Below, one piece after another: positions 25,677 to 55,593 of a DNA stretch of 64,000 bases. Both the position numbers and the translations under genes were made by a program. The notes under the pieces are model-generated. The model saw nothing but the letters and a program-made list of their open reading frames with translations, made no database searches and had not been told where the DNA came from. Within the stretch, counting starts at the first letter, position 1. Each line of letters begins with the position of its first letter. This DNA comes from an uncultured Candidatus Saccharibacteria bacterium (lineage in GTDB: Bacteria; Patescibacteriota; Saccharimonadia; Saccharimonadales; UBA4665). The DNA lies in contig CAZCMS010000001.1 in NCBI GenBank assembly GCA_964499935.1, positions 674,452 to 738,451 of the forward strand, read 5' to 3'.

Positions 25677-26666
25677 CTACTGTAATTCGGCTTTAAGTAT
25701 TCTTGCTAAAGCATTCATACTATTAAATTCATAGAATGCAAGGTATGCCAGCGCAAGTTTTCTGGCGTCAGTCTTACGAAGACTGACGCCTTTGCCAATA
25801 GAACTAATAAGGATAGCGTTTGCAAGCATCCGGCCAGTTCGCTTATTGCCGTCTTCAAAAGCCTGCAGGTATGGAACAAGAGTCAACGCTAGCTGTGCAC
25901 GAACAAAAGGGTTTTTTGTACGGCTGATAATAGAGAGTATTGTTTCCATATTTTCTCTCAACAGAAGGGGATTGGCGAGTGGCTCATAATTGCTTGCACT
26001 AATTCTAACGATCTTTTTTCGGATCCCGGCATCGATTCCGAGATTGCGACCAATAATCCTATGGAGCTCTTCAACGGAACTGAAAGCGATACGGTCTGTA
26101 AATAATTCATGGTTCTCAACAATGAATGCAATAGTATCTTTATGATTGAGTATCATCTGAGTCTCAAACTCAGTTCGATTTTTTGCCTTAATACCCTCAA
26201 CAAGAAGGAGTTGAGTATCGAGCAATGTGTAGGTGTTGCCTTCAAGCGCAGATGATTTCCATGAGAGCTCTATCGTCAGGTGTTCTAGTTCTTTTGCCGA
26301 CATTTTATTGCCTGTTGTTAGTTCGGTGACTTTGCTATAGTCACTGAAAAGATTATCAAGCTGCTGGCCTGATAATGAGTCCAGCCAAGTAATAAAGGCA
26401 TGACGGAATATACTTTGTGGACGATTCTCGTCTTCTAGAAGTTTATCGGCTATCATCGCGTGCATAACGGCTTCGTAGCTAGGACTATAGCTGGGACTAT
26501 TATTTGTGCCACTCTTACTAATAAGCCCAATGTCAGTAAGCCTCGCGAGTGCCCTCTGAATAGAGCGAATATCTACGTCTGGTAGATGCTTGCTGATTTC
26601 GGATGATGTCGTATCACCATTGAGTAAGTACAAGAGTACATACGAAGTTCTTTTGGTTATGTTCAT
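25677..26666 (-). CDS. Fic/Doc-family protein with N-terminal winged-helix domain, degenerate active site
   Basis: 329 aa with a wHTH N-terminus and inhibitory-type motif SSALEG. The active-site region QAFEDGNKRTGR is Doc-like (NKR) with Gln in place of the catalytic His. Confidence 0.7.
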   Translation of the reverse strand: MNITKRTSYVLLYLLNGDTTSSEISKHLPDVDIRSIQRALARLTDIGLISKSGTNNSPSYSPSYEAVMHAMIADKLLEDENRPQSIFRHAFITWLDSLSGQQLDNLFSDYSKVTELTTGNKMSAKELEHLTIELSWKSSALEGNTYTLLDTQLLLVEGIKAKNRTEFETQMILNHKDTIAFIVENHELFTDRIAFSSVEELHRIIGRNLGIDAGIRKKIVRISASNYEPLANPLLLRENMETILSIISRTKNPFVRAQLALTLVPYLQAFEDGNKRTGRMLANAILISSIGKGVSLRKTDARKLALAYLAFYEFNSMNALARILKAELQ

Positions 26667-40530: not shown

Positions 40531-40665
40531 ATGAAGGGTAAAATGGACAAAATGAGTGGCAAAGCTAAAAAAACCGCAGGAAAAATCACCGATGATAAAG
40601 AGCTAGAAGCTAGAGGTAAAATGCAAGAAACCGCAGGAAAAGTTAAAGAAAAAACAGTTCGTTGA
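40531..40665 (+). CDS. CsbD-family stress protein (44 aa)
   Basis: Hand translation gives MKGKMDKMSGKAKKTAGKITDDKELEARGKMQETAGKVKEKTVR, behind RBS GGAGAAG. Typical CsbD repeat pattern. Below the ORF-track cutoff. Confidence 0.7.
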   Translation: MKGKMDKMSGKAKKTAGKITDDKELEARGKMQETAGKVKEKTVR

Positions 40666-40755
40666 CGAAAATTCAATTTTCTTGTATGATGTTACCTACG
40701 CAATGTAGATAGTAATCCGTTGCCGTATCTTGATAAGCAAAACATAGTTCGTATG

Positions 40756-40805
40756 AAGCGAGGGACAATGATAAAATCCACCGATTTTATAACTGTCCCT
40801 CGCTT
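40756..40805. repeat. Nested inverted repeat (cassette B 5' hairpin)
   Basis: 12-bp perfect arms AAGCGAGGGACA / TGTCCCTCGCTT enclosing a second stem ATAAAAT / ATTTTAT. Confidence 0.75.
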
Positions 40806-40864
40806 TGTGCAATACGTGCACACCAGCATTATGCTGAAAATCGAGGCAAAACCAAGGAATTGCT

Positions 40865-41251
40865 ATGCTGACAGTAGACAGACAGGAAACGGCAGAGGTA
40901 GCACATACGTGTGGCCTGACCGGTGACGCGAGTCTCATGATTCGCCTCGAGAGCGATGAGGTTCACAAGGAGCGACTGCAAGCTATGCTTCCGACGCTGC
41001 TGACCAAAGACGTTGCTCGACAGCTGAGTAGGGAAGTCTCGATCAATCGTCCTTGCGACCCGAGGAGGACGCCCAAAAATAGGAGTGGAGATCGATCAAT
41101 ATCGGTCAGTGTCGCTGGAGTTCAAGTCTCGCTACATATTGAAGTAACGACGCGGAAGCCTCAGGACTTCGAACCTTTCATTTGGGCAACGCGTGAGTTG
41201 TTGGTGCCGATTCTCGCGGGTCAGCTGACCGTATATAAGAAAATGCTCTAG
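40865..41251 (+). CDS. Hypothetical protein (GC-rich cassette B)
   Basis: 128-aa ORF with RBS AAGGAA 5 nt upstream. Higher G+C than the flanks. No recognisable family. Confidence 0.5.
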   Translation: MLTVDRQETAEVAHTCGLTGDASLMIRLESDEVHKERLQAMLPTLLTKDVARQLSREVSINRPCDPRRTPKNRSGDRSISVSVAGVQVSLHIEVTTRKPQDFEPFIWATRELLVPILAGQLTVYKKML

Positions 41252-41313
41252 TCAATAACAGAAGTAACCCAGTGGCGAAAGTGACTCGCAACAGCATATT
41301 CACGCTCAGCTCG

Positions 41314-41340
41314 CACCGTCTGGTGTCTGTTTTCGTGTTT
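41314..41340 (+). terminator. Short terminator-like hairpin plus GT-rich tract
   Basis: CACC-GTCT-GGTG followed by TCTGTTTTCGTGTTTT. Confidence 0.4.
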
Positions 41341-41354
41341 TGTTTTGCTTGTCA

Positions 41355-41414
41355 TTTTCGCTCTACAAATTAAATAGTTGTACTGATGAGTCCTCAGGAG
41401 GACGAAAGCGAAAG
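41355..41414 (+). ncRNA. Type III hammerhead ribozyme (copy 1)
   Basis: UUUUCGCU-C/UACAA-9 nt-UUGUA/CUGAUGA/GUCC-UCAGGA-GGAC/GAA/AGCGAAAG. An 8-bp helix III, 5-bp helix I and 4-bp helix II, with every invariant core base present. Confidence 0.85.
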
Positions 41415-41494
41415 AATCTTTACAGCGCCAGCTGCCTTGCCGTGCTATAATCCTAAACGATTATAATTCATAAACTCTAATCTAAGGAGAAAAA

Positions 41495-41728
41495 ATGGCA
41501 GATAGAGAATCGGCACCAAACAAACAAGAAGCTCAAAGAACAGGGGAACAACTCGTAGGACCTCTTGCTGTAGCTCGACAATTTTCAGACTATGGCGAAG
41601 ACACCTTACGAATACTCGATGGTAACGGACAGCTAAAAATCGGCGGCATTGGCACAGAATATCACGACGCAGTGGAAGCAATAGTTGCAGCTGCAAACCA
41701 GGGCCTAGAACAAGACCAAAGCCAGTAA
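41495..41728 (+). CDS. Hypothetical protein (77 aa)
   Basis: ORF behind RBS TAAGGAGA and a TTGCCG..TATAAT promoter-like sequence. Confidence 0.5.
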   Translation: MADRESAPNKQEAQRTGEQLVGPLAVARQFSDYGEDTLRILDGNGQLKIGGIGTEYHDAVEAIVAAANQGLEQDQSQ

Positions 41729-55447: not shown

Positions 55448-55593
55448 GGAGTTAGTTAGGTTGTTGCTATTGATTATACATTCTTCTTACCATAATTAAT
55501 CATAAATTGACTAATATATAAATTAATACTATGATAAAATACCCTGTTGAATCTACATTCCAGTGGTGTACCTTGACAATCAGACAGTTATAG

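Follow-up and report, generated by a model that had tools for sequence, protein, structure and literature searches.

Cassette B, in a 64,000-nucleotide stretch of DNA (the window) from an uncultured Candidatus Saccharibacteria bacterium, is confirmed by our analysis as a self-contained transcription unit with its own promoter, a 5′ hairpin, a GC-rich orphan gene and a 3′ hammerhead ribozyme. Units of this type occur across Saccharibacteria and Patescibacteria. We show the anatomy of the unit, the family it belongs to, covariation of the hammerhead, the 3′ hairpin and the arms, and a link between the hammerheads and upstream GC-rich open reading frames (ORFs). Cassette B is typical of a family of hammerhead-capped gene units that is not described in the searchable literature. 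A full-text literature search returned no paper combining a hammerhead ribozyme with Saccharibacteria, and for Patescibacteria none among the matches listed mentions a hammerhead. Unless a contig is named, coordinates are positions in the window. Cassette B contains the following features, where UTR stands for untranslated region.

40662-40690, + strand: sigma-70-type promoter, TTGACG-17 nt-TATGAT, found by promoter scan with 10/12 matches
40731-40744, + strand: 5′ arm, TGATAAGCAAAACA, complement of the 3′ arm with 13 Watson-Crick pairs and 1 G·U pair
40751-40810, + strand: long 5′ stem-loop (outer stem of 17 bp, 3x3 internal loop, inner stem of 8 bp)
40854-40858, + strand: ribosome-binding site AAGGA, 6 nt before the ATG
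40865-41251, + strand: orphan ORF of 128 amino acids (aa), GC 0.53
41274-41296, + strand: anti-helix-III segment and pseudo-arm, GGCGAAAGTGAC..GCAACAGCA, the 5′ strand of the long 3′-UTR hairpin
41313-41340, + strand: apical 5-bp hairpin (stem 41313-41326) followed by the U/G-rich tract CTGTTTTCGT
41341-41354, + strand: 3′ arm, TGTTTTGCTTGTCA, directly abutting helix III
41355-41415, + strand: type III hammerhead, predicted cut between C41363 and T41364

A preliminary description of the window had grouped the hairpin, the orphan gene and the hammerhead into one cassette and had assigned the ribozyme to the 3′ end of the cassette transcript. Both assignments are upheld by the same four lines of evidence: the position of the ribozyme after a same-strand ORF, the pairing within the 3′ UTR, the complementarity of the arms, and the unit's own promoter.

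The core of the hammerhead is intact, with CTGATGA at 41383-41389, GAAA at 41404-41407 and a U-C cleavage dinucleotide. T41362 pairs with A41407 (A15.1-U16.1), and C41363 is H17. Helix I is formed by TACAA and TTGTA (5 bp with a 9-nt loop), helix II by GTCCT and AGGAC, and helix III by the 5′ strand TTTTCGC and the 3′ strand GCGAAAG; the 8 bp first attributed to helix III are reached if A15.1-U16.1 and one G·U pair are counted. The minimum-energy fold of 41355-41415 is the canonical three-way junction (-13.2 kcal/mol), with helix III open. The ribozyme thus resembles the type III hammerheads of Rfam family RF00008 in its CUGAUGA...GAAA core, U-H site, open helix III, and G10.1-C11.1 and A15.1-U16.1 pairs. 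It differs from them in scoring below the gathering cut-off, in its helix I of 5 bp with a 9-nt loop, in its fixed place in a bacterial 3′ UTR, and in the 5′ strand of helix III, which also belongs to a larger competing hairpin.

To describe the lineage we used a covariance model, R1, for which 25 copies of equal length were taken from this genome and related ones, with cassette B left out. Cassette B scores 48.1 bits against this model (E-value 7.6e-12). Among 58 family members aligned with R1, 91% of cells are paired, a percentage inflated both by the structure-requiring regular expression used to choose the seed and by the model-fitted alignment, and 15 of the 17 pairs change on both sides, a measure that neither of these inflates. 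Cells changed on both sides number 288, compared with 82 expected. The covariation score is 0.741 vs 0.222 in shuffles (0/500 as high) and 0.06-0.13 in slid controls, and all 58 members keep the A15.1-U16.1 and G10.1-C11.1 pairs unchanged. Core, lineage model and covariation together support, at the sequence level, an authentic hammerhead in cassette B, for which self-cleavage is predicted.

Upstream of the cut, the 3′ UTR folds into a long hairpin at 41274-41362 (-38.1 kcal/mol, z -6.1), and in the minimum-energy fold 41274-41296 pairs with 41341-41362. The 3′ strand of this hairpin consists of the 3′ arm and the 5′ strand of helix III through U16.1, and C41363 is left as the sole unpaired nucleotide before the predicted cut. 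The 5′ strand starts with GCGAAAG, the same heptamer as the 3′ strand of helix III. A small hairpin with a GT-rich tract, reported earlier, is indeed present at 41313-41340, but it does not stand alone and instead forms the tip of this long helix-III-masking hairpin. A single weak candidate for a terminator was found in the region, a stem of 5 bp, three of them G-C, with the tail CTGTTTTCGT, where shuffles give an expectation of 0.9 sites. No U run follows the 89-nt hairpin.

The 3′-UTR hairpin is conserved as a pairing. RNAalifold recovers it in 18 cassettes from five genera, with 20 pairs, 14 of which show compensatory changes, and its covariation score is 0.461 vs 0.256 in shuffles (0/500 as high) and 0.11-0.16 in slid controls. 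Across the same cassettes, the hairpin cells contain ~53 G·U and ~13 A·C combinations, with G nearly always on the 5′ strand. This bias shows selection for pairing in the sense-strand RNA, and it marks the 5′ strand of the hairpin as a weakened copy of the 5′ arm, for example TGGCAAGTGG against TGACAAGCAG.

The two arms of cassette B are complementary beyond chance, as 6/5000 shuffles of the 5′ UTR and 25/5000 shuffles of the 3′ window score as high (p ~0.001-0.005). For the family, exact complements were counted between the 21-nt stretch that precedes helix III and sequence lying 300-1600 nt upstream. Complements of at least 11 nt were found in 17/55 cassettes, compared with 4/165 orientation controls and 0/275 shuffles. 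A complement search over 5 kb with G·U allowed did no better than shuffles. The arm sequences vary among cassettes with full compensation, such as ACATGTCAAACTGA/TCAGTTTGACATGT and TGACAGTTGGGAGT/ACTCCCAACTGTCA, and these compensated differences fit pairing rather than a common protein-binding site.

At the 5′ end of the unit, the -35 hexamer of the promoter overlaps the stop codon of the upstream gene csbD. Cassette C has a similar promoter, TTGACT-17-TATGAT, at 55507-55535, and the 5′ arm follows the -10 hexamer at a distance of 40-41 nt in cassettes B and C and of ~40 nt in cassette D, where it was measured by eye. The ~33-nt leaders of these three cassettes have short motifs in common (GTAGA..TCC; regions compared: 40662-40731 for B, 55507-55575 for C and about 62300-62240 on the - strand for D). 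The 5′ arm of cassette B ends 6 nt upstream of the long 5′ stem-loop, which folds at -34.0 kcal/mol (z -10.8), and 0/200 shuffles fold as well. The nested hairpin described before at 40756-40805 is present, but the stem-loop is larger, spanning 40751-40810, with the inverted repeat 40756-40778 / 40783-40805 (91% complementary) as its core. The same description had an ORF of 128 aa, led by a ribosome-binding site, about 60 nt after the hairpin, and this agrees with the ORF at 40865-41251 and its ribosome-binding site, 59 nt past the hairpin end claimed there. We note that taking the strongest hairpin as the 5′ landmark across cassettes fails inside GC-rich ORFs.

The genome contains 14-17 hammerheads, as counted by pattern, Rfam and R1. 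The main contig (C1, 885 kb) carries 15 copies, and contigs C3 and C9 carry one further copy each. RF00008 matches were found in 15/41 relatives and R1 matches, usually 1-3 per genome, in 44/401 genomes sampled across the phylum. The hammerhead motif is patchy but widespread, and this genome is unusually rich in it. Nearly every hammerhead in this genome lies 75-150 nt past a same-strand ORF of 50-59% GC, and this rule holds for co-directional and convergent downstream genes alike. In 53 cassettes from ~15 genomes, 53-181 nt separate the stop codon from the cut. As the cargo of each cassette we took the longest ORF with its end 50-190 nt before the cut, a definition that slightly favours GC-rich sequence; this ORF exceeds the local background GC in 50/53 of these cassettes (mean +7.8 points, Wilcoxon p 8e-10). 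Cargo GC also correlates with background GC (r = 0.58), which argues against one foreign donor, and the GC excess looks like a property of the gene class rather than the trace of one donor. On C1 the hammerhead-associated ORFs lie at the 90th-99th GC percentile (Mann-Whitney p 1e-6). The cargo proteins of different cassettes are unrelated to one another. Pfam returned nothing for 12 other cassette proteins; the exception among cassettes is cassette A, a ThiF/JAB/ubiquitin-like operon.

The cargo of cassette B follows the same pattern. Its GC of 0.53 is at the 97th percentile of ~864 ORFs on the contig, and its GC at third codon positions is 0.56, compared with a genome mean of 0.40. Pfam holds no family for the protein, and in a word search of 5.8 billion proteins it matches itself alone. 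A single homologue, P0002 (131 aa, E-value 8.6e-14), emerged when 1.84 billion representatives were searched exhaustively with HMMER; it is 34% identical to the 128-aa protein in an ungapped alignment over 124 aa (pairwise E-value 2e-24). Back-translated scans of genome and metagenome contigs gave no additional relatives. An AlphaFold2 model from both sequences is confident, has a predicted local distance difference test score (pLDDT) of 81.9 and a predicted template modelling (TM) score of 0.73, and is composed, in order, of a beta-hairpin, two helices, a second beta-hairpin and a long helix. Fold searches of this model against PDB and BFVD gave no match (best E-value 0.017, TM 0.24-0.34). 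The initial statement that the protein has no recognisable family thus stands for Pfam and for fold matches, but the remote-homology search did find one 34%-identical homologue.

P0002 is encoded on L051, a 1.3-kb Logan contig from the metagenome run SRR28413647, immediately after csbD. At the aligned positions, L051 holds a promoter (TTGACA-17-TATTGT), a 5′ arm (TGACAAGCAAAGCA), a hairpin and the ribosome-binding site. The 5′ stem-loop is retained (-26.1 kcal/mol, z -7.0) with an apical sequence unrelated to that of cassette B, and its outer stem shows wobble-to-Watson-Crick and double compensatory changes relative to cassette B. The reading frame is open and of similar length (131 aa), and the cargo GC is 0.55. 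Between the two loci, the CsbD proteins are 75% identical (dN, the nonsynonymous divergence, 0.14), and the dN of the cargo is 0.75. Cargo identity by codon position is 0.47/0.54/0.32, and dS, the synonymous divergence, is saturated. The codon-position identities form a coding pattern, so that on the comparison of these two sequences the 128-aa ORF is a real gene. The gene diverges quickly, with its GC enrichment maintained and its linkage to csbD kept for a long time. The csbD-linked site of L051, its equally GC-rich cargo and the saturated synonymous sites indicate that cassette B is old and not recent foreign cargo. No relative carrying this interval at normal GC and lacking a ribozyme boundary was found; the sole relative, L051, keeps the csbD-hairpin-ORF order at GC 0.55, and the contig stops 10 nt past the stop codon of the cargo, short of any hammerhead position.

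We propose the following mechanism for the unit. Transcription would start from the unit's own sigma-70 promoter, at a predicted 5′ end near 40698 and ~33 nt upstream of the 14-nt 5′ arm, and the transcript would then bear the 60-nt stem-loop, the GC-rich orphan ORF led by a Shine-Dalgarno sequence, and a 3′ UTR of ~110 nt. The hammerhead at its tail would cleave after C41363 and leave an mRNA with a 2′,3′-cyclic-phosphate 3′ end, one nucleotide past the base of the 41274-41362 hairpin. A precise 3′ end would be produced in this way without a canonical terminator, and cleavage would separate the unit from downstream transcription. In an alternative state of the cleaved end, the two arms may form a 5′-3′ panhandle; hairpin or panhandle should block 3′ exonucleases. 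Before cleavage, the 3′-UTR hairpin would sequester the 5′ strand of helix III, so that the default state of the ribozyme is a masked one. When the fully complementary 5′ arm pairs with the 3′ arm, the decoy strand, weakened by G·U pairs, would be displaced and the hammerhead could fold. For L051, the expectation under this model is a hammerhead with a 3′ arm similar to TGCTTTGCTTGTCA ahead of it. Cleavage in vivo, stabilisation or insulation of the mRNA, and gating by the 5′ arm are what we infer from these features.

We consider it fairly probable that the ribozyme sets the 3′ end of the mRNA, sealed by a hairpin, and that it insulates the unit. We put forward more tentatively, as a plausible extension that is less likely than not, a three-strand switch in which the decoy masks helix III and the 5′ arm displaces the decoy and licenses cleavage, the arrangement serving as a standard Patescibacteria expression chassis for a large pool of GC-enriched, fast-diverging orphans. 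Partition-function folding of 18 full-length cassettes gave helix III solely where the arms were paired, and not where the local hairpin dominates; these thermodynamic occupancies are sensitive to construct ends and are used here for their mutual-exclusion logic alone. If the three-strand switch holds, maturation of the 3′ end would depend on the message's own 5′ end, which could be a cis check for full-length transcripts or a regulatory input.

Several points weigh against a ribozyme-made, hairpin-sealed 3′ end. The masking hairpin is ~25 kcal/mol more stable than the hammerhead fold (-38.1 vs -13.2) and is transcribed first, so the ribozyme might rarely fire. The predicted probability of arm pairing in cassette B is 0.50 vs 0.07 in constructs differing by 3 nt at the 5′ end, and predicted state occupancy also differs among cassettes. 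A clear arm pair is seen in about a third of the cassettes (17/55), and the transcription start of cassette B is placed by the consensus match alone. The hammerhead itself scores 24.1 bits against RF00008 in the window (E-value 1.1) and 22.3 bits in the genome search, compared with the gathering cut-off of 48.5.

A different account, which we regard as unlikely, treats the hammerhead as a switch that is regulated or silent most of the time and does not make ends constitutively, with the long 3′-UTR hairpin as the functional 3′ stabiliser or pause site. A factor such as the 5′ arm, a helicase, a protein or temperature would open the hairpin and so set read-through or mRNA decay. The ~25 kcal/mol advantage of the hairpin and its earlier synthesis speak for this account, as do the systematic G·U weakening of the decoy strand relative to the 5′ arm and predicted states that are near iso-energetic and cassette-dependent. 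It overlaps the model of a ribozyme-made 3′ end, however, and differs from it in the default state alone. The strict conservation of the core and three helices in 58 copies argues for frequent use of the ribozyme, and in the many cassettes followed by a convergent gene, a control on read-through would have no obvious target. Orientation also bears on an account in which the ribozyme serves the downstream gene, by trimming its 5′ UTR to a structured 5′-OH end or by insulating it from the cassette as engineered ribozyme insulators do. The next gene is co-directional in cassette B (a 77-aa ORF at 41495) and in cassette C (cyoA, 56453), and the hammerhead body would remain on the downstream fragment after cleavage. 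However, at least five or six of the 17 copies face a convergent downstream gene, an extended -10 (TGCTATAAT, 41443-41451) serves the gene after cassette B separately, and the conserved pairings join helix III to the upstream 3′ UTR and the 5′ arm, not to anything downstream. We hold this service to the downstream gene to be improbable.

Two further accounts place the origin of the unit in mobility. The arms could be terminal inverted repeats of a DNA-level mobile cassette, such as an integron cassette, a miniature inverted-repeat transposable element (MITE) or a moron, with the hammerhead as a passenger and the ORF as recent foreign cargo. The cargo is indeed unrelated between cassettes and anomalous in GC, conserved module sequence is common to different genera (81-88% identity), and the locus is missing in same-genus representatives. 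Against this, the arms differ with compensation, which a common transposase site would not allow, and the excess of G·U over A·C in the related hairpin points to RNA pairing. The boundaries of the cassette B arms show no direct repeat (ATCT|TGAT, GTCA|TTTT), and of the two PF00589 matches in the assembly neither is on the 885-kb contig, which holds 15 copies and no tyrosine recombinase. Cargo GC tracks the host background (r 0.58) and shows no fixed donor value, and the orthologue at the same csbD-linked site is equally GC-rich and synonymous-saturated, hence old. A DNA-level mobile cassette is quite improbable in our view. Movement or diversification through an RNA intermediate, in the manner of a retrozyme, with a panhandle-closed RNA being circularised or reverse-transcribed, seems to us very improbable. 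The RNA ends are defined and 5′-3′ complementary, the cargo diverges fast, and the genome has one reverse transcriptase gene. Each unit has one hammerhead, however, so there would be no 5′-OH end for ligation; no template/variable repeat was found near the reverse transcriptase, which is 14 kb from the nearest cassette; and the orthologue sits at a stable locus. We found no evidence of current mobility of cassette B. The reverse transcriptase gene lies outside the window.

C1:340777-341343, - strand: sole reverse transcriptase gene (RVT_1), in a frame of ~300 aa

A blastn comparison within ±5 kb of this gene returned no template/variable repeat.

Four classes of known element were considered for cassette B and rejected. 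An integron gene cassette does not fit, with no integrase on the contig and dispersed units that have their own promoters. In a terminal-inverted-repeat transposon or MITE the arm sequences would be constant; here they are not family-constant, and the cassette B arms have no target-site duplication. A retrozyme or circular-RNA element has two direct hammerhead copies bounding the unit, and cassette B has one. A prophage-associated hammerhead cluster does not describe a contig without integrase or prophage context, a single 3′ hammerhead and neighbours that are csbD, an EamA transporter gene and an SLT transglycosylase gene.

Other known systems resemble parts of the arrangement. Hammerheads of viroid and satellite RNAs also have a strand tied up in an alternative pairing of higher stability, so that the folding pathway decides on self-cleavage. 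Those RNAs are circular, replicate and have no mRNA function, whereas the mask here is the 3′-UTR hairpin of a chromosomal protein gene; cassette B, unlike them, also has a distant 5′ arm as a candidate unmasking strand. Phage morons are autonomous promoter-gene-end units of deviant GC located between other genes, and they end in ordinary terminators. Engineered ribozyme insulators and 3′-end ribozymes are synthetic and give an RNA end that is independent of context. Cassette B resembles morons and insulators as an autonomous unit of deviant GC with a ribozyme end, and differs in being natural and occurring ~15 times per genome.

Among bacterial hammerheads, the closest comparison is with the passages of Perreault et al. 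2011 (PMC3088659) considered here, which report hundreds of copies, many near integrases or prophages and some flanking single variable genes. For clustered hammerheads, these passages propose processing of transcripts into gene-length mRNAs, and they describe the biological role of bacterial hammerheads as still unclear (PMC3088659). The clusters in those passages have in common with our units the location of ribozymes by variable, often hypothetical genes and the idea of gene-length mRNAs. They differ in that here each unit has one ribozyme, always at the 3′ end, a fixed promoter and a GC-enriched orphan cargo, with the units dispersed over a small Patescibacteria chromosome and outside any prophage context. 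The conserved arms, the 5′ hairpin and the masking hairpin seen here do not appear in the passages of PMC3088659 considered.

The locus gives bacterial hammerheads a fixed and repeated address, the 3′ end of small autonomous genes, and the conserved RNA architecture around the ribozyme predicts specific mutational outcomes. If the proposed mechanism is true, ribozyme-made, hairpin-sealed mRNA ends would be an alternative to terminators in reduced genomes, and the unit would offer a natural design for conditional ribozyme insulators. It would also point to a class of orphan genes under special expression control in episymbionts, which may be candidates for host-interaction or defence functions.

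Cassette B is flanked by csbD, an EamA transporter gene and an SLT transglycosylase gene, and two of the neighbouring features are the following.

40531-40665: csbD, directly 5′ of cassette B
41495-41728: 77-aa ORF, GC 0.48, preceded by an AAGGAG ribosome-binding site and an extended -10

Two strain-level contigs carry cassette B unchanged at 99.4-100% identity. DNA assemblies of samples containing this strain are SRR30535871 and SRR8931242. In same-genus representatives, the SLT gene alone matches, at ~70% DNA identity, and the adjacent EamA transporter gene, csbD and the 128-aa ORF are all absent. The cassette B region is therefore variable at same-genus depth, as csbD, the cargo and the adjacent transporter are missing from the representatives. 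csbD and cassette B travel together, and L051 has both, with a different upstream neighbour. The 77-aa ORF is an orphan that matches itself alone in the database search, and no hammerhead follows it. A separate promoter for this gene, TTGCCG..TATAAT after the ribozyme, had been proposed earlier. The promoter scan did not return it, and its spacer would be 19 nt (41462-41467) or 3 nt (41446-41451), but a perfect extended -10 is present, and TGCTATAAT at 41443-41451 reads better as the extended -10 of the next gene.

Besides cassette B, the RF00008 search of the window gave three sub-threshold matches, and the nearest other hammerhead in the window is ~10.6 kb away on the opposite strand. A second hammerhead subtype is present in three copies, at C1:78294-78348(-), C1:512525-581(-) and C9:4630-4686(+). 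In these copies helix I is very short, 4-5 bp with a loop of 3 nt, and helix II is long (GACCTAGGAGGTTTAGGTC); their Rfam scores are good, at 33-42 bits, but their R1 scores are poor or no match is returned. At least 10 hammerheads occur in a relative from a different genus (L014 = G005:C6:28500-40500; L015), including four that share a strand over 7 kb and have arms of the TGACAAGCAGA type. Ordinary-looking genes lie among them, and they do not form a tight array.

The assembly is 1.47 Mb in 131 contigs, and the genomes of relatives are 0.7-1.2 Mb. The GC of C1 is 43.7%, and several large contigs (C2, C4 and C10) have GC of 55-57%. Part of the assembly may come from another replicon or organism. 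The hammerhead-bearing contigs C3 and C9 are similar to C1 in GC. Elsewhere in the window, 25764-25790 forms a perfect 11-bp hairpin, GGCGTCAGTCT-TACGA-AGACTGACGCC, with a chance-level match to a viral frameshift element (E-value 0.17), and it is probably an ordinary structural hairpin.

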